Of a stretch of 64,000 nt of DNA, positions 2,313 to 64,000 are shown one piece after another. The notes beneath the pieces were generated by a model that did not search any database, was not told the origin of the DNA, and saw only the letters and a list, made by a program, of their open reading frames with translations. This DNA comes from an uncultured Actinomycetes bacterium (GTDB lineage: Bacteria; Actinomycetota; Actinomycetes; S36-B12; UBA10799), in assembly GCA_964474045.1 (NCBI GenBank), contig CAYYRC010000006.1, positions 33,262 to 97,261 of the forward strand, given 5' to 3'. A program made the translations under genes and the position numbers. The first letter of the stretch is position 1, and each line of letters opens with the position of its first letter.

Positions 2313-3863
2313 CTAGTTCGTTGACTGGGCGCGCCGTCGGCTGAGCAGGTAGAGGCCGGCAGTCACGGCGCCCAGTCCTGCGCCGACCCATCCCTGGGCG
2401 CCGATGCCGTCCAGGTAGGCGCGCTGCAACGACGCGCCCACCACCTGCACCTCGGAGGGCGGTACCGCGTACGAGGTTGAGACTTCCTGCACGGAGGCGC
2501 CTGCCCGCAGTTGCTGCGCGATCTGGCTCGCCTCGGCGGCTGGCACGTCGGCGGCGTCCAGCTGGGCGGTGATGGACGTCGAGAAGGCGGCGTAGACGAC
2601 GGTCGAGAACAAGGCGATCCCCGCGACCGACCCCACGCTGATCGCCGCCTGCCGGTAGGCCGACGGACCCCCCTGGGAGGCGGCGCTGGCAGCGTCCATC
2701 AGCGCGTTCGTCATCGGCACCCCTGCCGCTACGGCGGCGTAGCTGTACCCGCACGTCACCAGCAGCGGCCACCACAGTGGCGAGTCCACCCGGAATGTCG
2801 CGCACAGCGCCATCGCGGCCGCGGACAGCAGGAGCAGGGCTGCGCCCGGCGCCGTCAACCCCCAGCGCCGCACGATCGGGCTGGCCGTGCGGGCGCCGAT
2901 GGCCGCACACGCCTGCGCCGGCACCATGAGCAGCGCCGTCTGCAGGATGCTTCGGTCGTAGACGTACTGGTAGGTCAGGGTCATGTAGTACCAGAGCTGG
3001 ATGAAGCACCAGAGCACAATGGCGCCCAGCAGCAGCACCACCCCGGGGCGTCGCAGCATCGTCACGTCCAGCGACGGGTCCCGAGTCCGGCGGAGCACGA
3101 TGACCAGGGCCACGCCCGCCAGGACGGTGATGGCCACGCGCAGCAGCGCCGCGCGCGACATCACGCCGTCCGTTGATGCGTGCGAGATCGCCTGGACGAG
3201 TCCCACGCAGGCCAGGCCCGCCAGCGTCGGCGTCCACCACTCGCCGCCCCTGCCCCCACGCCCGGCGCGCGGCGACGTCGGCAGCGCCCAGCGACCGGCC
3301 AGCAGCGCGATCAGCCCGCCCAGCACCCAGACTCCTGCCACCACCCGCCAGGTCCACCGCTCCATGAGCGCCGCCGTCAGCACCGGCAGCAGCACGAACA
3401 CCAGTGGGCTCACCATCGAGAACATGGCGAAGGCCCGCGTGCGCGCGTCGCGGTCGGCGAACGCCGCCCCGATCGCCGCGAGCGGGACCACCATCAGGAT
3501 GGTGCCGCCCACCGACTGCACCGCCAGCCCCACGGCCGCCGCGGTCACGTCCGGGGACGCTGCCACCAGCGCCGAGCCGAGGGTGAGCAGCAGGGCGCCG
3601 GCGGTGATGATGCGACGGGCTCCGAACCTCGTCGCCAGCAGCGCAGATAGGAAGATGACCAGCAGCGAGGCGATGCTGGGAACCTCGCGCAGGACCGCGC
3701 CGCTGTCCTGGTCCGCGCCGAAAGTGATGAGCATCGGGGTGACGATGTAGCTGATCGTCGCGCCCTGCATGTAGGCCGCACCGGCGGCGACGCAGACGCC
3801 GGCGAGCAGCCGTGATGAGCCGCGACCACCGTCGCTCGCGCCGCGCCCGTCGGAGCCGGCCAT
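2313..3863 (-). CDS. MFS transporter (14-TMS drug/H+ antiporter-like)
   Basis: About 516 aa, almost entirely hydrophobic helices. Start moved to the second ATG (3863) because GGAGG lies 7 nt upstream. The ORF track starts at 3884. Confidence 0.8.
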   Translation of the reverse strand: MAGSDGRGASDGGRGSSRLLAGVCVAAGAAYMQGATISYIVTPMLITFGADQDSGAVLREVPSIASLLVIFLSALLATRFGARRIITAGALLLTLGSALVAASPDVTAAAVGLAVQSVGGTILMVVPLAAIGAAFADRDARTRAFAMFSMVSPLVFVLLPVLTAALMERWTWRVVAGVWVLGGLIALLAGRWALPTSPRAGRGGRGGEWWTPTLAGLACVGLVQAISHASTDGVMSRAALLRVAITVLAGVALVIVLRRTRDPSLDVTMLRRPGVVLLLGAIVLWCFIQLWYYMTLTYQYVYDRSILQTALLMVPAQACAAIGARTASPIVRRWGLTAPGAALLLLSAAAMALCATFRVDSPLWWPLLVTCGYSYAAVAAGVPMTNALMDAASAASQGGPSAYRQAAISVGSVAGIALFSTVVYAAFSTSITAQLDAADVPAAEASQIAQQLRAGASVQEVSTSYAVPPSEVQVVGASLQRAYLDGIGAQGWVGAGLGAVTAGLYLLSRRRAQSTN

Positions 3864-3933
3864 CTGGCACCTCCTCGCCCTCATCCCAGGCTAGAGCCAA
3901 GGGCACTCCGGGCGGCCTGGGTAGGCTCGGAGG

Positions 3934-5850
3934 GTGGCGGACCCGCGCAGCTACCGGCCCGCGGCCGGCTCCATCCCCGACGGACCTGGCGTGTACCGGT
4001 TCCGCGACGGCGAGGGCCGCGTCATCTACGTGGGCAAGGCCAAGAGCCTGCGCAGCCGCCTGAGCAGCTACTTCGCCGACCTGTCGTCTCTGCACACCAG
4101 GACCGCCGCCATGGTCACCACCGCGGCCTCGGTCGACTGGGTCACAGTCGGCACCGAGGTCGAGGCGCTGCAGCTCGAATACTCCTGGATCAAGGAGTAC
4201 GACCCTCGCTTCAACGTGCGCTACCGCGACGACAAGTCCTATCCGTTCCTGGCCGTGACGATGTCCGAGAAGTTCCCGCGGGCCTCGGTCATGCGCGGCG
4301 CCAAGCGCAAGGGCACCCGCTACTTCGGCCCGTTCGCGCACGCCTGGGCGATCCGCGAGACGGTCGACCTGCTGCTGCGGGTCTTCCCGGTGCGCACCTG
4401 CACCAACGGCGTCTTCCGACGCGCCGAACAGGTCGGGCGCCCATGCCTGCTGGGCTACATCGAGCGCTGCAGCGCCCCCTGCGTCGGGCGGGTGGACGAA
4501 CAGGAGTACGCGCTGATCGTCGATGGCTTCGTGGCCTTCATGGCCGGCGGCACGCAGCCGGTCATCGACGACCTGACCGCGCGCATGAGGGCCGCCGCCG
4601 CCGAGCAGGACTACGAGCGCGCGGCCCGGCTGCGGGACGACCTCGGGGCACTCAACCGCGTGCTGGAGCGCAACGCGGTCGTGCTCGGCGACGGCACCGA
4701 CGCGGACATGTTCGCGCTGGCCGCCGACGAGTTGGAGGCCGCCGTACAGGTCTTCCACATCCGGGCCGGCCGGATCCGCGGCCAGCGCGGCTTCATCGTC
4801 GAGCGGGTGGAAGAGGGCGACCAGGCCCAGCTGGTGGCGGCGATGCTGCGGCAGTTCTACGGCGGTGAGAGCGGCGAGGCGGTGCCCCGGCAGGTGCTGG
4901 TGTCGCACGAGCCGGACGACCCCGAGGGCATGCGGGCCTGGCTCAGCGACCATCGTGGGTCGAATGTCGACGTCCGATCCCCGCAGCGCGGGGACAAGGC
5001 CAAGCTGATGGTCGAGCTGAGCCGCAACGCGGAGCAGACCCTGGCCCTGCACAAGACGAAGCGATCCGGCGATCTGACCACCCGCAGTCAGGCCATCGCC
5101 GAGCTGCAGGAGGCCCTCGAGCTGGCCGACGCGCCGCTGCGCATCGAGTGCATCGACGTCTCGAACCTGCAGGGAACTGACGTTGTGGCGTCGCTGGTGG
5201 TGTTCGAGGACGGCCTGCCGCGCAAGTCCGACTACCGTCGGTTCAACATCCGCCAGGCCGGCGACGACACCGCGGCGGTCGCCGAGGTGGTCCGCCGACG
5301 GTTCAAGCGCTACCTCGCCGAGCGGCATGAGGAGACCACGCCCTCGGCGTTCGCGTATTCCCCGGGGCTGCTGGTGATCGACGGCGGCGCCCCGCAGGTG
5401 CGGGCGGCGAAGGCGGCGCTGGACGAGCTGGGTATCGACGACATCGCCGTCTGCGGCCTGGCGAAGCGGCTGGAGGAGGTCTGGCTGCCCGGCGAGGGGG
5501 ACCCGGTGATCCTGGACCGGACCAGCGAGGGCCTGTACCTGCTGCAGCGCGTGCGCGACGAGGCCCACCGGTTCGCCATCGCCGGCCACCGGGCCAAGCG
5601 CGGCGCGCGGATGACGGCCAGCGCGCTTGACGACGTGCCGGGCCTGGGGGACGTTCGGCGGAAGGCGCTGATGCGTCGCTTCTCCTCGCTGAAGAAGCTC
5701 AAGCAGGCCAGCGCCGAGGAGATCGCCGAGGTCCCGGGGATCGGCCCGGCGACCGCGTCGGCGATCATCGCCGCGTTGGCCGGGCAGCCGGCGGCCCAGG
5801 CTGTCAATATGACCACGGGGGAGATCATCGAGCGCATGGGAGAGCAGTGA
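3934..5850 (+). CDS. uvrC: Excinuclease ABC subunit C
   Basis: GIY-YIG N-terminus [26 protein letters not shown]-terminal helix-hairpin-helix [20 protein letters not shown]. 638 aa. Confidence 0.95.
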
Positions 5851-6710
5851 ACGACGACCCGGAACTGCTGCTCGTCACCGGCATGTCCGGGGCGGGCCGC
5901 TCGACGGCGGCCCGGGCGCTGGAGGACCAGGGCTGGTTCGTGGTGGACAACCTCCCGCCCACGCTGCTCGACGCCACCGTGGACCTGGTGGGCCAGCGCG
6001 AGGACGTCGATCGCTTGGCCGTCGTGCTCGATGTCCGCTCGGGACGGTTCTTCGGCGAGCTGCCCGCGCTGGTGTCGCGCATCAGGGCTGACGGCGACGA
6101 CGTCCGGCTGCTGTTCCTGGAGGCCTCGGACGAGATCCTGCTGCACCGTTTCGAGTCCAACCGGCGACCCCATCCGCTGCAGGGCAGCGGCACGCTGCTG
6201 GACGGAATCGAGGCCGAGCGGGCCATCCTCGCGGACCTGCGGGCCCAGTCGGACCTGGTGATCGACACCTCCGAGCTGAACATCCACGACCTGCGGCGCC
6301 GTATCGACGCCGCCTTCGAGCGGGCCGACGACACCCAGCTGCGGGCGACGGTGGTGTCCTTCGGCTTCAAGCACGGCATCCCGGCCGACGCCGACCTGGT
6401 GGCCGACGTGCGGTTCCTGCCCAACCCCTACTGGGTGCCCGAGCTCCGAGACAAGACCGGCCTGGACGCGGACGTCAGCGACTACGTGTTCGAGTCCGAG
6501 GAGGCCCGCGCGTTCCTGGACCAGTACTCCAAGCTGATCGACATCGTCGCCGACGGCTACCTGCGGGAGGGGAAGCGCTTCGTCACGGTCGCCGTGGGCT
6601 GCACCGGCGGCCGGCACCGCAGCGTCGCCATGGCCGAGAACCTGGCGGCGCGCCTGGTGAAGAACGGGGTCGAGAGCATCGTGATGCACCGGGACCTGGG
6701 CCGGGCCTAG
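5847..6710 (+). CDS. rapZ: RNase adapter / P-loop NTPase RapZ (YvcJ family)
   Basis: Walker [11 protein letters not shown]-terminal [10 protein letters not shown] motif. GTGA overlap with the uvrC stop. Confidence 0.9.
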
Positions 6711-49408: not shown

Positions 49409-49435
49409 GCGCTGGCCGGCTTGGCCCGGCCGTGA

Positions 49436-49488
49436 CAGGTTTGTGCCCGAAAACGGCCCGCCGGTGGTGGTTTTCGGGCACAAACCTG
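49436..49488. repeat. Long-hairpin repeat copy A: 19-bp perfect arms CAGGTTTGTGCCCGAAAAC / GTTTTCGGGCACAAACCTG with a 15-nt loop
   Basis: Read directly. It lies between the convergent stops at 49408 (+) and 49511 (-). Confidence 0.85.
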
Positions 49489-49510
49489 ACGCGAGAGGCT
49501 GCAACCGGCA

Positions 49511-53478: not shown

Positions 53479-53539
53479 CCTCGGCGGGTGACAAGCGGCG
53501 GCGCCTGAGCCGGGACCGGCGTCGCCCGCACGGCCGGGA

Positions 53540-53592
53540 AAGGTTCGTACCCGAAGACGGTCCGCCGGGTGGCGTCTTCGGGCACAAACCTT
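53540..53592. repeat. Long-hairpin repeat copy B (20-bp arms, 2 mismatches that become G-U pairs in the minus-strand RNA)
   Basis: AAGGTTCGTACCCGAAGACG / CGTCTTCGGGCACAAACCTT. It starts 19 nt downstream of the paralog B stop on the minus strand. Confidence 0.8.
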
Positions 53593-55544: not shown

Positions 55545-57041
55545 ATGGACACCATGGACTTGGCGAGTACGTCTGCCGACGGCGAGGACACGGACGGAGT
55601 GCGGCCCGACCCGCACGGTTCGTCACCATCCGGGAGCGGGACGATCCCCGGGGTCAGCACGGATCGGCGCAGGTGGAGCTGGCGGAAAGCCGCGGGGACT
55701 GCCGTGGCCGCGCTGCCGCTGTTGGCGTTGACGGCCTGCGGAGTCGACGGTAACGCTGCGTCGGCGAGCACCGCGCCGGCCGCGGCCTCATCAGCGCCGC
55801 CCGCCGCCACCGCCGCCGCTGCCGCGGCGTCCAAAGGCGCCCAGGCGGCCCAGTACGCCTGGGTCCAGCTCATCGACGGCGGCCGGGTGTCGGTCCGGGC
55901 GGTCTCGTCGGGAGCCTCGTGCCCGACCATCACGGTCAACGGCTCCGCATCGGCCATGCCGGTCAGGGCCGCAGCAGGGGGCGCCGACTTCCCGGTCGCG
56001 GTGTGCGAGCAGGTGCTGACAGCGCCGGCCACCTCCATCGACGTCGCCGGCATCAAGCTGCCGATTCCGCTGGCCAAAGGTGCCCCGCTGGATCGGCTGG
56101 CGATCCTCGGCGACTCCGGTTGCCGACTCGAACCCCCCAAGCCGATGCAGGATTGCAACAACTCGAACGGCTGGCCGGCCCATGAGGTGTCGGCGGAGGT
56201 GGCCACGCGCAACCCGGCGCTGATCATCCACACCGGCGACTACTACTACCGAATGGTCCAGTGCCCGGCGGCCGACCAGGCCAAGTGCGGCGGCAGCCCC
56301 CACGGACCCACGTGGGACACGCTGGAGGCCGACTTCTTCGAGCCCTATAAGTCGTCGTTGGGAGTGGCTCCCTGGATCTTCTTGCGCGGCAACCACGAGA
56401 CCTGCCAGATGGCGGGCGACGCCTTCCTCAGGCTCTTCGCCGCCGGACCCTACACGCCCGGTGCCTGCAGCAACTTCCTGCCGCCCTACGCGGTGGACGC
56501 CGGCGACCAGCGCTTCGTGGTGTTCGACGACTCCGACGCCGCGGACGACAAGGTCGACGCGGCCCAGGTGAGCACGTATACGCCGCTGATGCAGTCGGCG
56601 CTGGCGCTAGCCGCGGCCGGACCGCAGCCGACCTCGTTTCTGCTGCTGCACCGTCCGATCTGGCTGGAGGAACCTGCCGGGAAGAACACCGAGACGATCA
56701 ACCTGACCATGCAGGAGGTGGCCAACAAGGTGGGTGACACCCTTCCCGGGGTCGAGATGGTGGTGTCCGGGCATATCCACGGACTGGGCTACTTCTCGTT
56801 CGCCCACCGGCCCACTCAGGTTATCTCCGGCGGCGGCGGCGCGGAGAAACTGAGCAAGGACGCCGACTTCGCGGGAACCTCGATCGCCGGCGCCCAGGTT
56901 GCGCAGGGCCTGCTCAAGTCGGACTACGGCTACACGATGGTCAAGAAGCAGCAGCAGGGCTGGTCGGTGGACTTCGAGACGGTCGGCGGCGGTGCGACGC
57001 TGAAGTGCACCGAGGTCAACCGGTTCCTGAAGTGCTTGTGA
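55545..57041 (+). CDS. Lipoprotein metallophosphoesterase (calcineurin-like)
   Basis: RRWSWRKAAGTAVAALPLLALTACG signal and lipobox. ILGDSG, IIHTGDYYY, LRGNHE and SGHIHG motifs. The start is uncertain: 55446, 55545, 55554 or GTG 55599. Confidence 0.75.
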   Translation: MDTMDLASTSADGEDTDGVRPDPHGSSPSGSGTIPGVSTDRRRWSWRKAAGTAVAALPLLALTACGVDGNAASASTAPAAASSAPPAATAAAAAASKGAQAAQYAWVQLIDGGRVSVRAVSSGASCPTITVNGSASAMPVRAAAGGADFPVAVCEQVLTAPATSIDVAGIKLPIPLAKGAPLDRLAILGDSGCRLEPPKPMQDCNNSNGWPAHEVSAEVATRNPALIIHTGDYYYRMVQCPAADQAKCGGSPHGPTWDTLEADFFEPYKSSLGVAPWIFLRGNHETCQMAGDAFLRLFAAGPYTPGACSNFLPPYAVDAGDQRFVVFDDSDAADDKVDAAQVSTYTPLMQSALALAAAGPQPTSFLLLHRPIWLEEPAGKNTETINLTMQEVANKVGDTLPGVEMVVSGHIHGLGYFSFAHRPTQVISGGGGAEKLSKDADFAGTSIAGAQVAQGLLKSDYGYTMVKKQQQGWSVDFETVGGGATLKCTEVNRFLKCL

Positions 57042-58473
57042 TGAACACCTCGGCGAGTTCGTCGGCGCTCAGCGGCGCGTAGCCGGCGAGTTGCCCGGCC
57101 AGCACCGTGAGGTCGGCCTCGGAGGCGTCCGGACCCCGGGTGCGAATCCGCCGTTGGAGCTCCGACAACGGGGCCTGGCAGTGCAGGATGCGAAAGTCGG
57201 CGCCGGCGCGCTGAGCAACGGCCCGCATCAGGTCGCGCTGCCCGGGTTCCAGGAAGGTGGCATCCGCCACGACCGACCACCCCGACGCCAGCAGCACCTC
57301 CGACATCTGCGCCAGCCGCCAGTAGGTGTCGGCGGTGGCGGACTCCGAGTAGATGCCCTGATGATGCGGCGAACGGCTGTCCTCGTGCGGGTTCAGGCCG
57401 TGCAGCCGCTTGCGCTCGACATCCGAACGCAGCATCACGGTCGCCGCGCGGGGGTCCGCGAGGATCAGCTGTCTGGCGGCCGTGGACTTCCCCGACCCGG
57501 AGAGCCCGTGAGTGATGACGAGTCGCCGACGCACCGGCGCAGCCAGGTCGGCGGCGATGGCGAGGTAGCGCTCGGCGTCGGAGGCACGATGCTCGAAGCC
57601 GGACACCATCGCGCGGACCAGCGCCCGGTAGCAGCCGTAATAGCGCACGAGCGACACCGCCTCGGCATCGCCGCGCAGGGTGAGCCACTCATCGATCAAG
57701 GTGCTGGCTAGCGCCGGCTGGCCGTGGTCGAGCAGGCCGATGTAGGGGAACGCGAGCTCGTTGGCCACATCCAGCCAGCGCAGCTCGTCGCTGAACTCGA
57801 TGCCGTCAAAGGGGGTGACGACGCCGTCGAGCAGCAGCAGATTGGCCAGGTGCAGGTCGCCGTGGCCCTCCCGGATCAAGCCCGACTCCAGCCGTCGCTG
57901 CAGCAGCGGGGCCAGCCGGTCGTGCTCGCGCGTCAGCCAGGCCGCGATCGGGGGGAGCCTCGGGTCATCGGCTGCCCCTGACTCCGCGGCCGTAGCCAGG
58001 GTGGTCGCCACCCGGCGACCGATCGTGGCGGGGGAGCCCAATGGGCCGTCGGGCGCCGCGGATGGCGCATGCTCGTGCAGCGCGACGACGGTCGACACCA
58101 AGTCGGCGATGTGGGCCGGGCGAAGGTCGCCCCGCCGGCAGACATGGTCGAGCCGATCCGCCTCGTCGAACCGGTTCATCACCACGGCCGGTTCGTCGGT
58201 CGGACCGAACGTGCCCACCTCCCGGTAGAGCGCCGGGGCGAAGCGGGAGTTCAGCCGCAGTTCCTCCTCGCAGAAGTACCGGCGCCGGGCCTCAGTGCTG
58301 TAGTCCAGGAACTCGAAGCGCACCGGCCGCTTGAACTTGTAGACGGTGTCCTCGGTCAGCAGCAGCCACGAGATGTTCGTCTCGATGAACTCGGCGGACC
58401 ACTGGGCGCGCAGCTCGGTCAGCCAAAGCGGCAGCCGGGCCTCGTCTGGGGTTGCCTGCTGCTGACGGGTCAC
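57016..58473 (-). CDS. Fusion of APH/ChoK-like kinase domain and P-loop (AAA_33-like) kinase domain
   Basis: GHGDLHLANLLLL and FDGIEF in the N-terminal half. ITHGLSGSGKST Walker A in the C-terminal half. Confidence 0.8.
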   Translation of the reverse strand: MTRQQQATPDEARLPLWLTELRAQWSAEFIETNISWLLLTEDTVYKFKRPVRFEFLDYSTEARRRYFCEEELRLNSRFAPALYREVGTFGPTDEPAVVMNRFDEADRLDHVCRRGDLRPAHIADLVSTVVALHEHAPSAAPDGPLGSPATIGRRVATTLATAAESGAADDPRLPPIAAWLTREHDRLAPLLQRRLESGLIREGHGDLHLANLLLLDGVVTPFDGIEFSDELRWLDVANELAFPYIGLLDHGQPALASTLIDEWLTLRGDAEAVSLVRYYGCYRALVRAMVSGFEHRASDAERYLAIAADLAAPVRRRLVITHGLSGSGKSTAARQLILADPRAATVMLRSDVERKRLHGLNPHEDSRSPHHQGIYSESATADTYWRLAQMSEVLLASGWSVVADATFLEPGQRDLMRAVAQRAGADFRILHCQAPLSELQRRIRTRGPDASEADLTVLAGQLAGYAPLSADELAEVFITSTSGTG

Positions 58474-58663
58474 CCCTCCATCTCACCACCGGGGTGTGGC
58501 CCCGGGTGCGCGGGCCCGATCCCGCTGTTGTGCGGGGCGGGGGCGAACCGCGGGCGGCTGGAACCCCTGCCCGCTTCGGTGGTGGCGGACTCACCGGCGG
58601 CCTCTGTGGTCGCAGGTCCAGGCCACGCTTGGGCAGGTGCTTCCGGCGTCGATCGCTAGGCGG

Positions 58664-58722
58664 GACAGGCTTGTGCCCAAAGACCGTCTGCCGGTGGTTG
58701 TTTTCGGGCACAAACTCGACGC
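58664..58722. repeat. Long-hairpin repeat copy C (sequence-similar to copy A including flanks gacagg..gacgcg)
   Basis: GCTTGTGCCCAAAGAC / GTTTTCGGGCACAAAC arms. It starts 8 nt after the NERD gene stop on the minus strand. Confidence 0.8.
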
Positions 58723-58729
58723 GGGGCGT

Positions 58730-59419
58730 CTACCGGGCCGATGGCCCCGGCGGCGGCAGGTCCACCGGCTGAGCATCGGGGAACCACGACCGCGCGTAGC
58801 GAAGGCACTCGTGCAACAACTCGACCTCGGCTGCGCTGTAGATCGGGTGCAGCTGCGCGAAGTACGCGGGCACGTCCTCGCCGGCGAGCACCGTCACGCC
58901 GGGCGGGCGGCTCTTGATCCTCAGCCGGCCGTCGGGACCGACCAGGATGACGATCACCGGCAGCACCGTGACGTGCAGGCCGGAGGCGAACCGCAGCCGG
59001 TTGGTCGCCGTGTGCGCCTCTTCCTTGGCCTGGTGCGCGTAGTCCTTGGGATATCGACCGACCCAGATCGTGTCGGCTTTGACGTCCACCCGCTGCCCGG
59101 CGTGGTGCTTGGTGTTGATCGTGAAGACCCCCGGCGGACCGACGAGGACATGGTCGATGTCGCCGCCGTACTCGGTCACCTGGACGGAGTTCAGGACGCG
59201 CCAGGCAGTCCGGGTGAGCGGCTCCAGGCGGGCGGCGACGTCCTGCTCGCCAAGGATGCCCTTGGCGTAGGAGTTCGGTTGGGGCGGTTCGGCCGGGTCG
59301 GCAGGGTCGCCCCACTTCGCGAGCTGGCGCAGGCCCTGCCCGGCCTCGTGGGCGGCGAGGTCCTCGTCGGGATCTACCGGCTTGCGGTAGGGCCGCCACG
59401 TCCCCTTGCCTCGTGCCAT
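58730..59419 (-). CDS. NERD-domain protein (stand-alone)
   Basis: GGDIDHVLVGPPGVFTINTKHHAG core. Start taken at MARGKGTW (59419). Confidence 0.75.
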   Translation of the reverse strand: MARGKGTWRPYRKPVDPDEDLAAHEAGQGLRQLAKWGDPADPAEPPQPNSYAKGILGEQDVAARLEPLTRTAWRVLNSVQVTEYGGDIDHVLVGPPGVFTINTKHHAGQRVDVKADTIWVGRYPKDYAHQAKEEAHTATNRLRFASGLHVTVLPVIVILVGPDGRLRIKSRPPGVTVLAGEDVPAYFAQLHPIYSAAEVELLHECLRYARSWFPDAQPVDLPPPGPSAR

Positions 59420-59742
59420 TGGAACCCCTCCCCACGTGCCGGTGCCGCAGCCATCGGACTCGCGTCGGAGCCTGCCTGCGGTGGAACTCGGCTGAGGATC
59501 GTCACTTCGTGAGTCGGCCTGGGGGCGGTTGCGCCAATTGGGTGAGCGACTTCGATCGGACCGGGTCGCGTCCAACATCCACCTCGTCCAGATTCCAGCC
59601 GGCTACCGAGGCAGGCGGCGGCGCGAGGCTTGGCGCGGCACTCGTTGGACGCCCAGCGGCACTTGCCGGACGACCGTCGGAAGCACATCGTCAGGCGCCT
59701 GGGCAGGTGTGGACGACGCTGGGACGGGCACGAAGTTCGACG

Positions 59743-59748
59743 TAGCAT
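59743..59748 (+). promoter_or_regulatory. Possible -10 hexamer TAGCAT, 6 nt upstream of ATG 59755 (leaderless transcript?)
   Basis: TANNNT pattern, with no RBS between it and the ATG. Confidence 0.3.
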
Positions 59749-59754
59749 GACGCC

Positions 59755-60048
59755 ATGACCACCGACTTCGTCGCCTACGACGATCTGCCGCGGGCCGACG
59801 AGGAGTCGCTCCGAGCTCGCGCTTCCGAGTTGATCGCACTTGCCGAGGGCTTGGGTTTGACGAACCTGCGATATGCGTCGAGCAACCGCATCGTCGTGAC
59901 GCTCACCGAGCACGTGGAGACCTTGGGGGAGTATCGCTTCGCCGAGAAGGCGAGCTACCTTCTGGGACTTCAGGTCCGCGTCTACGATGACGCGGTGCTG
60001 AGAAACCCGGGCGTCAGCCCGGACCTGCTGGCGGCAACGCCGCTGTAG
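59755..60048 (+). CDS. MNT-like (minimal nucleotidyltransferase-related) putative antitoxin lacking the GS..DxD catalytic signature
   Basis: 97 aa, 10 nt upstream of a DUF86 gene. The C-terminal LLGLQVRVYDDAVL resembles the MNT C-terminus. No GS..DxD motif was found. Confidence 0.5.
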   Translation: MTTDFVAYDDLPRADEESLRARASELIALAEGLGLTNLRYASSNRIVVTLTEHVETLGEYRFAEKASYLLGLQVRVYDDAVLRNPGVSPDLLAATPL

Positions 60049-60058
60049 GCCTGGGCGG

Positions 60059-60409
60059 ATGGATCGCGAGTACACGCGCCAGGAGTTGCTGGTCGAGGTC
60101 GTCGCCGCAGCCAGCAGGCTGCGCGAGCTCGGCGCCCGCGGGGACCTGCGGCGCTTCACCGATGACGAGGTCTTCCGCTTCGCACTGGCGTACCTGTGGT
60201 TGCGGCTTGCGGAACCCGCGTGTCAACTCGTCACGCGGCGCCTGGTCGGTGAGATGTCGATGGCCGTCTGGTCTGGCCTATGCCCCATCCGAAACGCCCT
60301 CGCGCACGAACGAGACGAGGACATCAACTACCAGCGGCTGTGGGTCAATGTGCCCGCCGCGGTCGAGGCGTCGCTTGGCGAGGCGGATCGGCTGCTGGCT
60401 TCGACCTGA
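60059..60409 (+). CDS. HEPN-domain protein (DUF86/HepT-like) putative toxin
   Basis: Rx4H motif in CPIRNALAHERDEDINYQRLW. 116 aa. Confidence 0.7.
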   Translation: MDREYTRQELLVEVVAAASRLRELGARGDLRRFTDDEVFRFALAYLWLRLAEPACQLVTRRLVGEMSMAVWSGLCPIRNALAHERDEDINYQRLWVNVPAAVEASLGEADRLLAST

Positions 60410-60432
60410 GGGTGTCAGGCGAAGGTCGGCTC

Positions 60433-60462
60433 GGCCAGCGGCGATCTGACTGCCCGCTGGCC
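60433..60462 (+). terminator. Hairpin GGCCAGCGG-N12-CCGCTGGCC, 24 nt after the HEPN gene stop
   Basis: 9-bp perfect inverted repeat read directly. Confidence 0.45.
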
Positions 60463-60600
60463 AAGGAACTTGCAGCCACCCAGCCCAGCCAAGTTGAGCC
60501 GAGTTGCCGACGCTCGCCCGACCTGTGCGACAGGCGATCCTGCCCTTCGCATCGTCGTTCCGGCGCCTGAGGCCGGCGCAACCCCCACTCGGGTCACCCC

Positions 60601-61794
60601 ATGGCGATACTGAATCCCGTGACGCGCCGGCTGATCTTCCTGACGTGCTCAGTGCTGCTGCTGGAGTCGTTCTTCTCGGCTGTGCTCACCCCGATGGTGC
60701 CGGCGTTCCGGCAGGAGCTGGGACTGTCTGAGGGGGCCACCGGAATCCTCGTGGCCGCCTATGCCGCCGGGTCGCTGATCTTCTCGATGCCCGCGGGGTG
60801 GTTCGCGTCGCGCTACAACCCGCGGACGGCGGTCGTCGTGGGGCTGCTTGGCGTCGGGTTGTCCAGCGTCGCCTTCGGCTGGGCCGGGCACGCCACCATG
60901 CTCGAGGCGAGCCGGTTCCTCCTGGGTGCCTTCGGTGCCTTGATGTGGGCCGGCGGTATGAGTTGGACCATCTCGGCGGCCGGGGTGGACGGCCGGGGAC
61001 AGGTCATGGGGACGCTGCTGGCCGCCGCGGTAGCCGGCGAACTGATCGGCTCACCCGTCGGGGCGGTGGCCGACCATCTCGGCACGGAGTATGTGTTCAC
61101 CGGGCTGTTGGTGCTGTCGATCCTGCTGGCCGGTCTGGCCCGGACCGTACCGCCCGTCGCCGAGGAGGCCGGCCAGACCGCGCGCGAGGCGCTGTCGGCC
61201 GTGCGGGAGGCGGGGGTGACGCGGTGGGTCTTCGCCCTCGTGGCCGTTGTGGGGCCGTCAATCGCGCTCGGATCAGTGCTCGTGATCGTGCCGCTGCGGG
61301 TGGAGGCGCTTGGCCTGTCGTCGTGGATTCTGGCCGCCGGTCTACTGGGGATGTCCGTGGTGGAGATGGTCACGGGTCCCCTGGCCGGGCGCTGGAGCGA
61401 TCGCGTGGGGCGCAAGACGCCGTTCCTCATCGGGCTGGCGATCATGGCGCCTTGTGTCGTGGCGTTCGCGGTGATCCCCGCCTTCGCCGGGATCGCCGCG
61501 GTCTTGGCTGTCTACGCGGTGGGGTCGGCGTTCGCGTTCACCACCTCGATGACCTCTCTGGCCGACCTGGCTACTCGCGCCGGACTCAACCAGGGGTACT
61601 CATCAGCCACGTCGTCCATCGGCTGGGCGGGGGGTTTGATCGTTGGCGCCCTCGTCGGCGGCGCCATCGTGGGGCGCGTCGGGTACCTGGCGGGGGGACT
61701 GGCGGTGGCGGGGCTGCTGGGGGCCGTGGGGGTGGTGACCTATCGGGTGGCTGCAGGCGACAGGAACGTGGGGGCGGTGGCGCGGGAGGGGTGA
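60601..61794 (+). CDS. MFS transporter (12-TMS)
   Basis: 397 aa polytopic protein. The GRWSDRVGRK loop motif is typical of MFS proteins. Confidence 0.85.
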   Translation: MAILNPVTRRLIFLTCSVLLLESFFSAVLTPMVPAFRQELGLSEGATGILVAAYAAGSLIFSMPAGWFASRYNPRTAVVVGLLGVGLSSVAFGWAGHATMLEASRFLLGAFGALMWAGGMSWTISAAGVDGRGQVMGTLLAAAVAGELIGSPVGAVADHLGTEYVFTGLLVLSILLAGLARTVPPVAEEAGQTAREALSAVREAGVTRWVFALVAVVGPSIALGSVLVIVPLRVEALGLSSWILAAGLLGMSVVEMVTGPLAGRWSDRVGRKTPFLIGLAIMAPCVVAFAVIPAFAGIAAVLAVYAVGSAFAFTTSMTSLADLATRAGLNQGYSSATSSIGWAGGLIVGALVGGAIVGRVGYLAGGLAVAGLLGAVGVVTYRVAAGDRNVGAVAREG

Positions 61795-62047
61795 TCGTGC
61801 TGGGCCGGATTGGCTTCGGCCGTGCCTCGACTCCGCCCGACTCGTCATCCTCGCGTATCCCACCATCGCGAGAGGTGAGCCGCACTCCGCGGGTAGCTCG
61901 TACTCGGCGGAGGACCGCGCCAAACCCCCAACCCACAATTGGCCGGGTCGCGGCGCTGGGAAATTCGCGGCTGCGGCCGCAACCGGCTCAGGTTTCGGTA
62001 GATTCGCCCGTAGCCGCCTCGCACCTTTCACGGAGAGGATTCCGGCC

Positions 62048-63736
62048 TTGGCCCGCATGATTCCGCCGGTTGTGGATGGCGATGCCCCGCCTGGTGAGAG
62101 GCGGCTATACGAACTCCTGGCGACAGCTTCCGATACAGACGACTGGATTGCCATTCACGGGCTTCACCTTGCGGACCATCCCAACCAGCAGCGTGGCGAG
62201 ACCGACTTCGTCGTGATCGCCCCAGAGCGCGGGGTGCTGGTGATCGAGGTCAAATCGCATCGGTCGGTACGACGTGACAAACGAGGAATGTGGTTGCTCG
62301 GATCCCAGGCACCCACTGATCGCAGCCCGTTTGACCAGGCTGACGACGAGATGTTCGCGATCAAGACGTACCTTGCACAGAGGATGGGGCTCAGTACGAC
62401 CCACATCGAATCCTGCGTTTGGTTCACCCACGCGCCAGCCAGGCGTGAGTTCGTCGACGCGATCGAGTGGAGCCCGTGGCGCCTGCTCGATTCGGGGGAT
62501 CTGGTGGACGTGCCGGGGAGGATCGCGCACGTGCTTGCCGAGGGGCGTGAGCATCGGGCCAAGGCCGGACATTCCTGGCCTGCCGTGGTCGGCCCGGACA
62601 GGGCCACTGCGGAGAAGATCGTCTCGGTGCTGAAGCCTGCCATGCATGCTCAGCCCAGGCCCGCGGACCTCCGGCGGGAACGGGCCAACGAGCTCGCCCG
62701 ACTGCTTGAGGAGCAGGCGGAGGTCCTCGATGGTCTGTTGGAGAACGACCAGGTCCTGGTCACGGGTCCGGCCGGCTGTGGGAAGACCTTCCTGGCACTG
62801 GCCGCAGCGCGAAGGGAAGCTGAGAACGGCAAGCGTGGTCTGCTGGTCTGCTACAACCATGCGATTTGTGACTTCCTCGAGGAACAGGCTGATGGTATCT
62901 CCGGCCTCAGGGTGGCGACCCTCCATGAACTGATGCGCGAAGTTGCGGATGTCCCAGCGGGTGAGATCACGGATCGCGACTTCTGGGAGCAGGAGTTGCC
63001 CGCAGCGGCGTTGGAGGCGCTGCTGTATTCGGACGACGAACCGGTGGACTACCTGATAGTCGACGAGGCACAGGACATTTGCCGACCGAACTATCTCGAT
63101 GTACTCGACCTGGCGGTCAAGGGGGGACTTGCTCAGGGACGCTGCATGTTTTTTGGGGACCTCGATGACCAGGCTGTGTACATCGACTCGCCAAGGACAC
63201 ATCTGGAAGACGCCGCGGGTCGCGTTGCGAAGTACAAGCTGAAAGTCAACTGCCGGAACAATCCCGGTATCGCCCGCGCCGCTTCGGAATTCGGTGATGC
63301 CGTCAACCACTACTCGCGGTGTAGCCGCAGCGAAGGCGGCAGCACCCCGGCGGTCTTCGAGTACGCCACCATGCCGGAGCAACAGGAACTGCTCCTGAAC
63401 TCCGTCCAGGGTCTGCGCGAGGAGGGCTTTGACCTGCACGAGATTGTCGTTCTCAGCCGCTACCGCGAGCGCGCGGCCGCCGCGCAGGCGACGGATCCCT
63501 GGCTGAGGCAAGTATTGGTGGATTTCAGGCGTGGTGGCCAGATTCCCAAGGGACGCATCCGCTACTCGACGATACATTCATTCAAGGGTCTGGAAGCGCC
63601 CGCGATCATCCTGACGGACGTGACGGCGTCCGGGCGTGGTCCCTACTTCGATCTGCTGAACGTGGGCATCACCAGGGCTCGAGACCGCCTGGTGATTTTC
63701 GGGACGGCCGACGGCCTGCGGCAGCACCGAGGGTGA
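62048..63736 (+). CDS. NERD nuclease-like domain fused to SF1 (UvrD/PcrA-like) helicase/ATPase
   Basis: GETDFVVIAPERGVLVIEVKSH (D..ExK). Walker A TGPAGCGKT. YLIVDEAQDI. C-terminal STIHSFKGLEAPAIIL and NVGITRARDRLVIF. TTG start lies 9 nt after GGAGAGG. Confidence 0.8.
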   Translation: MARMIPPVVDGDAPPGERRLYELLATASDTDDWIAIHGLHLADHPNQQRGETDFVVIAPERGVLVIEVKSHRSVRRDKRGMWLLGSQAPTDRSPFDQADDEMFAIKTYLAQRMGLSTTHIESCVWFTHAPARREFVDAIEWSPWRLLDSGDLVDVPGRIAHVLAEGREHRAKAGHSWPAVVGPDRATAEKIVSVLKPAMHAQPRPADLRRERANELARLLEEQAEVLDGLLENDQVLVTGPAGCGKTFLALAAARREAENGKRGLLVCYNHAICDFLEEQADGISGLRVATLHELMREVADVPAGEITDRDFWEQELPAAALEALLYSDDEPVDYLIVDEAQDICRPNYLDVLDLAVKGGLAQGRCMFFGDLDDQAVYIDSPRTHLEDAAGRVAKYKLKVNCRNNPGIARAASEFGDAVNHYSRCSRSEGGSTPAVFEYATMPEQQELLLNSVQGLREEGFDLHEIVVLSRYRERAAAAQATDPWLRQVLVDFRRGGQIPKGRIRYSTIHSFKGLEAPAIILTDVTASGRGPYFDLLNVGITRARDRLVIFGTADGLRQHRG

Positions 63737-63887: not shown

Positions 63888-64000
63888 TCACCCCAGCTCG
63901 TCGCTCGGGTCCTGCAGCACGCGTCCCAGCTCCGGGTGCTCCACCGCGTCGTAGCCGTGGTCGTCGAGCCAGGCCAGCACGGCGTCCACCCGGTCCCCGG
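63888..64000 (-). CDS. 3' end of an unidentified CDS that starts beyond the window
   Basis: Minus-strand frame reads ..GDRVDAVLAWLDDHGYDAVEHPELGRVLQDPSDELG-stop and is open to the window edge. Confidence 0.3.
   Translation of the reverse strand, partial: GDRVDAVLAWLDDHGYDAVEHPELGRVLQDPSDELG

Follow-up and report, generated by a model that had tools for sequence, protein, structure and literature searches.

Independently distributed NERD and HepT/MntA-like modules lie side by side in the genome of an uncultured Actinomycetes bacterium

Nhi and Hna are single-protein immunity proteins in which a nuclease is joined to an SF1-type helicase. A NERD-helicase has been described beside some UG34 reverse transcriptases ("cluster 485"; Mestre et al. 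2022, PMC9226505) and is represented in PADLOC by the model RTasNERD-Hel; NERD domains were also reported to be enriched in defense islands (PMC9226505). ZwsA (Zowangsin) is a NERD-domain RNA endonuclease directed against RNA phages (bioRxiv 10.64898/2026.04.06.716636). The type VII toxin-antitoxin (TA) system HepT/MntA is defined by the motif RX4HXY in the toxin and GSX10DXD in the antitoxin (PMC7641770). Here, we analyze a stretch of the genome of an uncultured Actinomycetes bacterium in which genes resembling parts of these systems are neighbors: a stand-alone NERD gene, a pair of small open reading frames (ORF A and ORF B) with predicted minimal nucleotidyltransferase (MNT) and HEPN folds, an MFS transporter gene and a gene for a NERD-helicase fusion. 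The stretch occupies positions 58730–63736 of a window of 64,000 nt, which corresponds to nucleotides 33262–97261 of contig C6 of the host genome (G000:C6:33262–97261); positions given below without a contig are those of the window. An earlier note had described the stretch as a clustering of the defense-island type, in which the stand-alone NERD gene and the HEPN/MNT pair could work as one unit.

New defense systems are mainly discovered through guilt by association, and it is therefore important to recognize mere accretion of genes. The stretch analyzed here is probably not one system, but a set of four independent transcription units that came together in this species, at the edge of a mosaic region that lacks synteny. 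The first unit would be the stand-alone NERD gene, which codes for a protein of the PD-(D/E)xK type and would be ended by its own hairpin. The second would be an autonomous HepT/MntA-derived pair, in which ORF B may act as a HEPN RNase toxin and ORF A as an MNT-fold partner that neutralizes it by direct binding; this pair would carry its own promoter/operator box and multiply by tandem duplication within one genus. The third unit would be an unrelated MFS transporter gene. The fourth would code for a NERD nuclease-SF1 helicase, which could load on DNA, translocate and cut, and which is kept as a single copy in most genomes of the genus, at differing places. Because each module occurs alone in relatives, we favor a chance gathering of accessory modules over one defense machine. 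Of all parts of the stretch, the pair is of greatest interest: it lacks the AMPylation motifs, is present in multiple copies and forms tandem arrays. Attention thereby shifts from a trio of stand-alone NERD, ORF A and ORF B to this genus-restricted, putative HepT/MntA derivative and to a NERD-SF1 helicase that has no reverse transcriptase.

The host genome (G000) has a size of 2.85 Mb, 52 contigs and a GC content of 70.3%. We compared it with ten genomes of the same genus (G001–G010, i.e., 11 genus genomes including G000), and 61 genomes were searched overall. The comparative set consists of approximately 10 distant, fragmented metagenome-assembled genomes (MAGs), and the sources of related sequences were solely MAGs labeled as uncultured Actinomycetes or Actinomycetota. 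The gene map was based on public gene calls on identical contigs, analysis of ORFs and of GC content at third codon positions (GC3), and domain searches.

ORF A (59755–60048, + strand, 97 aa) and ORF B (60059–60409, + strand, 116 aa) had no match in Pfam (up to an E-value of 10), NCBIfam or PADLOC, and sequence-profile searches against PDB gave nothing relevant for either of them. AlphaFold models of both proteins were built on family alignments. The best PDB folds for the ORF B model (pLDDT 93.3, pTM 0.86) were the HepT toxins 6m6u, 7ae6, 7bxo and 7ae8 (probability 0.99–1.0, TM-score up to 0.71). The Foldseek E-values of ORF B were weak (0.07–0.4), which is usual for small helical bundles. 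For the ORF A model (pLDDT 92.1, pTM 0.81), the best PDB fold was 1wot, a 98-residue minimal nucleotidyltransferase (E-value 1.1e-3, probability 1.0, TM-score 0.65), followed by MntA chains (probability 0.96–0.98). These models suggest that ORF A has an MNT fold and is the presumed antitoxin, whereas ORF B, by its model and its profile, would be a divergent HepT-like HEPN protein and the presumed RNase toxin.

An exhaustive search of 1.84 billion representatives with the ORF B family profile yielded 59 proteins, which comprised five strong clusters and weak full-length matches; 32 of the 37 weak full-length matches belong to the HepT-like Pfam family PF01934. An hhalign comparison of the ORF B family with this distant set gave a probability of 99.6%, with RN-LAH-eRdqDIdY aligned with RN-laH-Y--ID; the comparison is partly circular, although the Pfam labels are independent. 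It should be noted that ORF B falls below the gathering threshold of PF01934 and that its homology was detected by profile search and hhalign only. When the ORF A profile was compared with a genuine neighboring MNT protein by hhalign, no alignment was obtained.

The RX4H RNase motif is present in 24 of 25 ORF B family members (as RNALAH in the window copy), and R78, N79 and H83 are conserved in at least 90% of them. In contrast, the acceptor tyrosine of RX4HXY was found in none of the 25, and its position is mostly occupied by Arg (H-E-R or H-D-R), whereas the complete motif occurs in 31 of the 37 distant canonical HepT-like proteins. GSX10DXD was found in none of 16 ORF A family members; in the ORF A model, a four-residue turn joins strand 1 and strand 2 where the GS helix would be expected. 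The pair is similar to HepT/MntA of Shewanella oneidensis (SO_3166/SO_3165, PMC7641770; PDB 5yep, 6m6u and 7bxo) in that a small MNT gene directly precedes a small HEPN gene, the two being closely spaced or overlapping, and in that the HepT and MNT folds and the RX4H motif are shared; HEPN/MNT of Aphanizomenon (PDB 7ae2–7ae9) provides a further comparison. It differs from these systems in the missing acceptor tyrosine and GSX10DXD motif and in its scores below Pfam thresholds, and also because its family occurs in one genus only and has multiplied there as tandem arrays. As judged from these motifs, the pair is a HepT/MntA derivative in which the predicted RNase site is kept and both halves of the AMPylation chemistry are missing. 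Since the acceptor tyrosine and the nucleotidyltransferase motif have both been lost, we infer that ORF A would neutralize ORF B by direct binding, as in type II systems, and not by AMPylation, as in type VII. Neutralization would then probably be stoichiometric rather than enzymatic.

Of the 10 same-genus genomes, 6 have ORF B homologs (1–10 copies per genome); searches of 26 other genera of the order gave none. Among 185,579 species genomes, the pair family was found in only 5 MAGs (uncultured Actinomycetes), and the rest of the family is on metagenome contigs. ORF A is directly ahead of ORF B in every copy, often with a 4-nt overlap. One contig of G006 (L028, G006:C96:5000–11333, 2900–6334) contains four tandem units with a period of 924–960 bp and 70–80% DNA identity, and 5–6 units are found among other small genes on a metagenome contig (L056, 1600–9200). 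Additional arrays are present in G005 and G010, and array loci also include L029 and L031–L033 (2 to 6 units). ORF A is also found as truncated or solo copies. An integron-like cassette origin of the arrays was considered and rejected, as their units are plain tandem duplicates at this level of identity and have no inverted repeats. In one metagenome lineage (L052, 1–3022 and 8403–11021), the pair lies between a DndB/QueC/radical-SAM/PTPS cluster and a block of DUF4417/Peptidase_M78 and HTH genes; the DndB/QueC cluster looks like a 7-deazaguanine DNA-modification set, and the surroundings as a whole resemble those of mobile elements or defense genes.

The promoter/operator region of the window pair (59707–59748, + strand) was recognized by a box and a hexamer that match copies in other genomes. 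The box, GTGTGGAC, is located at 59707–59714, and the -10-like hexamer TAGCAT is at 59743–59748, 6 nt before the ORF A ATG. We inspected the upstream regions of 23 ORF A copies from other genomes, at loci L017–L026, L028–L030, L032–L034, L052, L054 and L056. All 23 have a [C/G]TGTGGA[C/T] box (CTGTGGAC) approximately 40–50 nt upstream of ORF A and a TANNNT hexamer 6–7 nt before its ATG, and both elements are kept even among paralogs with 25–40% protein identity. In some copies, the box belongs to a CTGTG...CACAG or GTGG-N4-CCAC palindrome. The predicted box looks like a conserved operator-like element combined with a leaderless-type promoter, and the position of the hexamer suggests a leaderless or very short-leader transcript. 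No sigma-70 promoters were found in a promoter search of the stretch. Since the same box and hexamer precede all copies, the module appears to bring its own promoter/operator.

The stand-alone NERD gene (58730–59419, - strand) has an ATG start with a GGAGG ribosome-binding site and codes for 229 aa, the same length as in public gene calls. Its product passed Pfam PF08378 (E-value 3.6e-15). The active site reads GDIDHVLVGPPGVFTINTKHH, that is, D-I-D-H...I-N-T-K with Asn in place of Glu; the last acidic residue of the PD-(D/E)xK-type E...D...(D/E)-x-K site is present in the fusion, but not in the stand-alone protein. The subfamily is actinobacterial and has the signature GDIDHV...INTKHH (N-x-K). 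INTK or INSK was observed in nearly all aligned members, and E58, D87, D89 and K104 are invariant or near-invariant. Because Asn is conserved across the subfamily, it points to a functional variant site rather than decay, and the N-x-K protein is probably functional. The NERD domains of the stand-alone protein and the fusion share just 28% identity over 75 residues, and for this reason the two are independent, with no recent duplication. These domains and folds, and the retention of E-V-K in the fusion versus Asn for Glu in the stand-alone protein, bear out the proposal of the earlier note that two independent NERD genes, one apparently catalytic and the other with an altered site, lie close to a HEPN/MNT-like pair and an MFS gene. 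ZwsA provides a precedent for a stand-alone defense protein whose catalytic effector is a NERD domain with an E/D/E-x-K site. However, ZwsA is a large protein with VHS, DUF647, NERD and S4 domains; the proteins described here differ from it in architecture, and the stand-alone one has N-x-K.

A terminator-like hairpin ("repeat C", 58661–58723, - strand, stem TTTGTGCCCGAA...TTCGGGCACAAA) begins 7 nt past the stop codon of the stand-alone NERD gene. Because of this position, we read it as a terminator that parts this gene from the gene for an APH-like/AAA_33 kinase fusion (57016–58473, - strand). Repeat C has three copies genome-wide, all in the window (49431–49493, 53516–53589 and 58661–58723), and its RNA fold is about -28 to -32 kcal/mol. 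The hairpin had been taken as the left boundary of the stretch. It is real, but a role as an island or mobile-element boundary was rejected, as it is a three-copy local hairpin of the terminator type that follows gene ends.

Two NERD copies from the same species (P0056 and P0057) show 86–97% identity to the stand-alone protein, and the 1.67-Mb long-read contig of P0057 has 97% DNA identity to the window throughout. One further homolog, from a metagenome contig of 1.2 kb, is 73% identical. The remaining homologs are at most 38% identical, and the closest among genus genomes is in G005 (38%). We inspected three homolog contexts: a conjugative-element neighborhood with TrwC relaxase, WhiB and YAcAr, a locus with a ThsB-like TIR protein (PADLOC 7.8e-74) and an SRA/type IV restriction-like protein, and a Prim-Pol neighborhood in a Streptomyces genome. 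In a tblastn survey of all fetched loci, neither ORF A nor ORF B was found beside stand-alone NERD homologs. As far as these comparisons indicate, the subfamily is sporadic and accessory, occurs near mobile or defense genes and is independent of the pair.

The gene for the NERD-SF1 (UvrD-like) helicase fusion (62048–63736, + strand) codes for 562 aa, or 559 aa when started at the ATG at 62057. The product matched Pfam NERD (E-value 1.7e-13) and the helicase families UvrD_C_2, AAA_30 and AAA_19, and its motifs are intact (GE...D-x13-E-V-K, Walker A GPAGCGKT and DEAQ). In PADLOC, it matched RTasNERD-Hel over its full length (3.1e-31, residues 1–555) and C3a187 "NERD+UvrD" (5.2e-20); the match to Nhi was weak and partial (E-value 4e-6, helicase part). 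Public gene callers give 461, 480 or 559 aa for this gene on identical DNA (start 62048–62057). As the NERD domain is missing from the short calls, database copies can look like plain helicases. A true truncation was rejected, as the difference is one of start-codon choice only.

The fusion is like the UG34-associated NERD-helicase in having an N-terminal NERD domain and a C-terminal SF1 helicase in one protein. Unlike the UG34 system, it has no reverse transcriptase; the gene stands alone, and its neighbors are the MFS transporter gene and a gene designated u160. No reverse transcriptase gene is adjacent, and PF00078 had no match in this 96%-complete genome; therefore, membership in the UG34 system fails. 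Nhi and Hna (named in PMC10732053) offer a plausible working analogy, since in both cases a nuclease and an SF1-type helicase would be combined in one polypeptide, but the nuclease domain of the fusion is from another family.

Single-copy orthologs of the NERD-helicase with 56–64% identity were detected in 7 of the 10 genus genomes (8 of 11 with G000). Outside the genus, the best NERD-helicase matches were at most 34% identical, and a contig scan with the NERD-helicase protein as query found no relatives. Neither the pair nor the stand-alone NERD gene was detected by tblastn at the ortholog loci. It is possible that this protein is a chromosomal DNA-repair/recombination enzyme of the genus and not an immune gene, in which case its neighbors would be irrelevant. 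This idea is consistent with the single-copy occurrence in most genus genomes and with the identities of the orthologs, which are within the range of core genes (45–73%; kinase 45–53%, SpoU 62–71%, ABC 62–72% and Abhydrolase_9 70–72%) and rank the relatives in the same order. In addition, G008, G009 and G010 have a block in common, between citrate synthase and dapD, that contains the NERD-helicase gene; the neighbors of this gene there are DJ-1/PfpI, a Na/H exchanger or LGFP amidase, FUSC, DUF1707 and an esterase, with no defense gene. However, lineages differ in the position of the gene, and the citrate synthase-dapD site also varies; in G000, this site (C7, 21000–24400) is occupied by other genes. 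HipA and Fic genes are neighbors in G001 and G007, and a ResIII helicase gene in G005; in G006, the neighbor is an RNase_T exonuclease gene. Furthermore, the NERD-helicase was not found in three genus genomes (82–97% complete), its full-length PADLOC match is to a defense-associated helicase model, and the GC content of the gene is atypically low in G000 (63.2%, GC3 0.75, versus 70.3% for the genome; the lowest 1.4% of 1.7-kb windows). On balance, we regard a repair function as a real possibility, although a rather unlikely one. In lower-GC relatives, the GC content of the gene matches its surroundings. The composition would fit relocation or within-genus transfer and proves neither.

The citrate synthase-dapD interval was also observed to be a variable hotspot, with contents that differ among G008, G009 and G010 (L071–L073: G010:C9, G008:C4 and G009:C10). 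One of the G000 genes at this site resembles, by eye, ethanolamine ammonia-lyase.

To the right of the stretch, gene order is shared with relatives. Synteny with G008 and G009 extends from an Rv1486c_N-like gene through Abhydrolase_9, starting at ~64.5 kb, and synteny with G001 and G003 from the ABC transporter onward. To the left of this block, synteny is lacking for all genes from u160 to the kinase gene at least; relatives retain the kinase gene, but with other neighbors. The stretch forms the right-hand end of a segment that is lineage-specific and non-syntenic. In every contig with an identical ORF B, the genes follow the same order and the DNA does not differ; over the NERD-helicase region, ten contigs recovered from different samples have one and the same sequence. 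No variation within the species was seen, and the arrangement was found in no other species.

The MFS transporter gene (60601–61794, + strand, 397 aa, Pfam MFS_1 E-value 1.3e-47) is situated between the pair and the NERD-helicase gene. It has orthologs with 66–68% identity on other contigs in G001 and G003, and no close ortholog was found in G008–G010. It is an unrelated passenger or housekeeping gene.

A true defense island, in which separate systems are held together by selection for synergistic protection against phages or plasmids, would be in agreement with several of these data, including the NERD-helicase matches to PADLOC models, the nominally non-random clustering of NERD genes (see below) and the reported enrichment of NERD domains in defense islands (PMC9226505). 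Homologs of each module elsewhere are often beside TA, defense or mobile genes: ThsB-like TIR, type IV restriction, TrwC relaxase, HEC-09, DndB/QueC (Dnd/Dpd-like), HipA and Fic. As in defense/TA islands, unrelated nuclease, TA-like and helicase modules are grouped in a lineage-specific segment, and one of them has an atypical composition. However, the stretch is very small, is interrupted in its middle by the transporter gene, and contains no recognized complete system. The NERD-helicase was its only PADLOC match (a component without its reverse transcriptase and a candidate model); the seven other genes tested gave none, and the genes without a PADLOC match include those for the kinase, u160, a 264-aa protein, a metallophosphatase and a dehydrogenase. 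No integrase or transposase was present among Pfam-checked genes in or beside the stretch, and no tRNA, Rfam RNA or convincing att-like direct repeats were found. Together with the lack of strain-level variation and the housekeeping neighbors of the G008–G010 orthologs, these data make selection for joint protection quite unlikely. What stands of the defense-island signature is an accessory segment whose genes have defense-prone relatives; clustered recognized systems, or a single system, do not. The modules are independently distributed in other genomes, yet their homologs are often located near TA, defense or mobile genes.

Several observations weigh against a gathering of independent units. 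Three NERD genes are present in the whole genome, and two of them are ~3.1 kb apart; the nominal chance of such proximity is ~0.007, as a post-hoc estimate under uniform placement. This proximity could hint at functional cooperation. A 335-bp spacer separates the divergently transcribed stand-alone NERD gene and ORF A, and the two could share their regulation in this species. Finally, u160 is located directly upstream of the ORF A-ORF B pair in G010 and beside the NERD-helicase gene in three genomes, so that the modules may have more in common than a landing site.

The u160 gene (63888–64370, - strand; the window contains its 3' part, 63888–64000) was identified from a public gene call and codes for an acidic protein of 160 aa with no Pfam or PADLOC match. 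The gene was found in just four genus genomes (G000 and the three with loci L030, 4087–4551; L074, 10401–10892; L076, 7452–7943) and nowhere else among the 61 genomes searched. It adjoins the NERD-helicase gene in G000, where the two are convergent, and in G001 and G007, where it is directly upstream on the same strand. It is possible that u160 is an accessory factor, or a mere fellow traveler of the same accessory pool, based on two or three independent observations. A two-gene system, in which u160 regulates or inhibits the NERD-helicase or serves as its immunity partner, would account for the finding that three of its four genomes have it directly beside the helicase gene. We nevertheless consider such a system very doubtful, since G001 and G007 are close relatives and leave two independent cases only, orientations differ, and five helicase-bearing genomes have no adjacent u160 (in G010 it is beside the pair, and none was found in G005, G006, G008 and G009). 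A wider scenario, which we regard as unlikely, is that toxin and antitoxin of the ORF A/B family jointly lost AMPylation chemistry, reverted to binding-only neutralization and spread as arrays of diverged paralogs, each with a CTGTGGAC operator-like box, and that u160 is a shared accessory factor linking the pair and the NERD-helicase.

Finally, a single three-gene system, for example one in which the stand-alone NERD protein is a sensor or second effector and the pair a regulated RNase, is highly improbable: the adjacent, divergent arrangement is fixed in all same-species contigs, and one pair-bearing metagenome contig (L053) has a 67-aa NERD-like fragment 2.4 kb away, but with this exception ~23 pair-bearing loci elsewhere, many of them arrays, have no NERD gene by tblastn, the stand-alone NERD protein lacks a homolog in four of the six genus genomes with the pair, the NERD subfamily occurs elsewhere with no ORF A or ORF B nearby, and the pair has its own conserved promoter box. 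The suggestion that the trio works as one unit is therefore not upheld, and independent units remain the preferred explanation of the stretch.

Several minor features of the locus were also noted. The coding sequences of both NERD genes are connected by a perfect 18-nt inverted repeat (59179–59196 and 63393–63410). Both sides encode LNSVQ, at non-homologous positions, and the repeat probably arose by chance, with an expected count in 8.4 kb estimated at ~0.02–0.03. The 264-aa Rv1486c_N-like protein (64489–65283, - strand) was identified from a public gene call that carries a precomputed Pfam Rv1486c_N match; our own Pfam scan gave no match for it. The block to the right of this gene consists of ABC transporter, SpoU, His_Phos_1, Cu-monooxygenase and Abhydrolase_9 genes. 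Elsewhere in the host genome, stronger low-GC outliers than the NERD-helicase gene are found on C46 (1–5.7 kb, down to 41%), C32 (1–25 kb, down to 57%) and C10 (63.6–72.3 kb, down to 56%), and these may be foreign DNA, rRNA operons or binning contamination.

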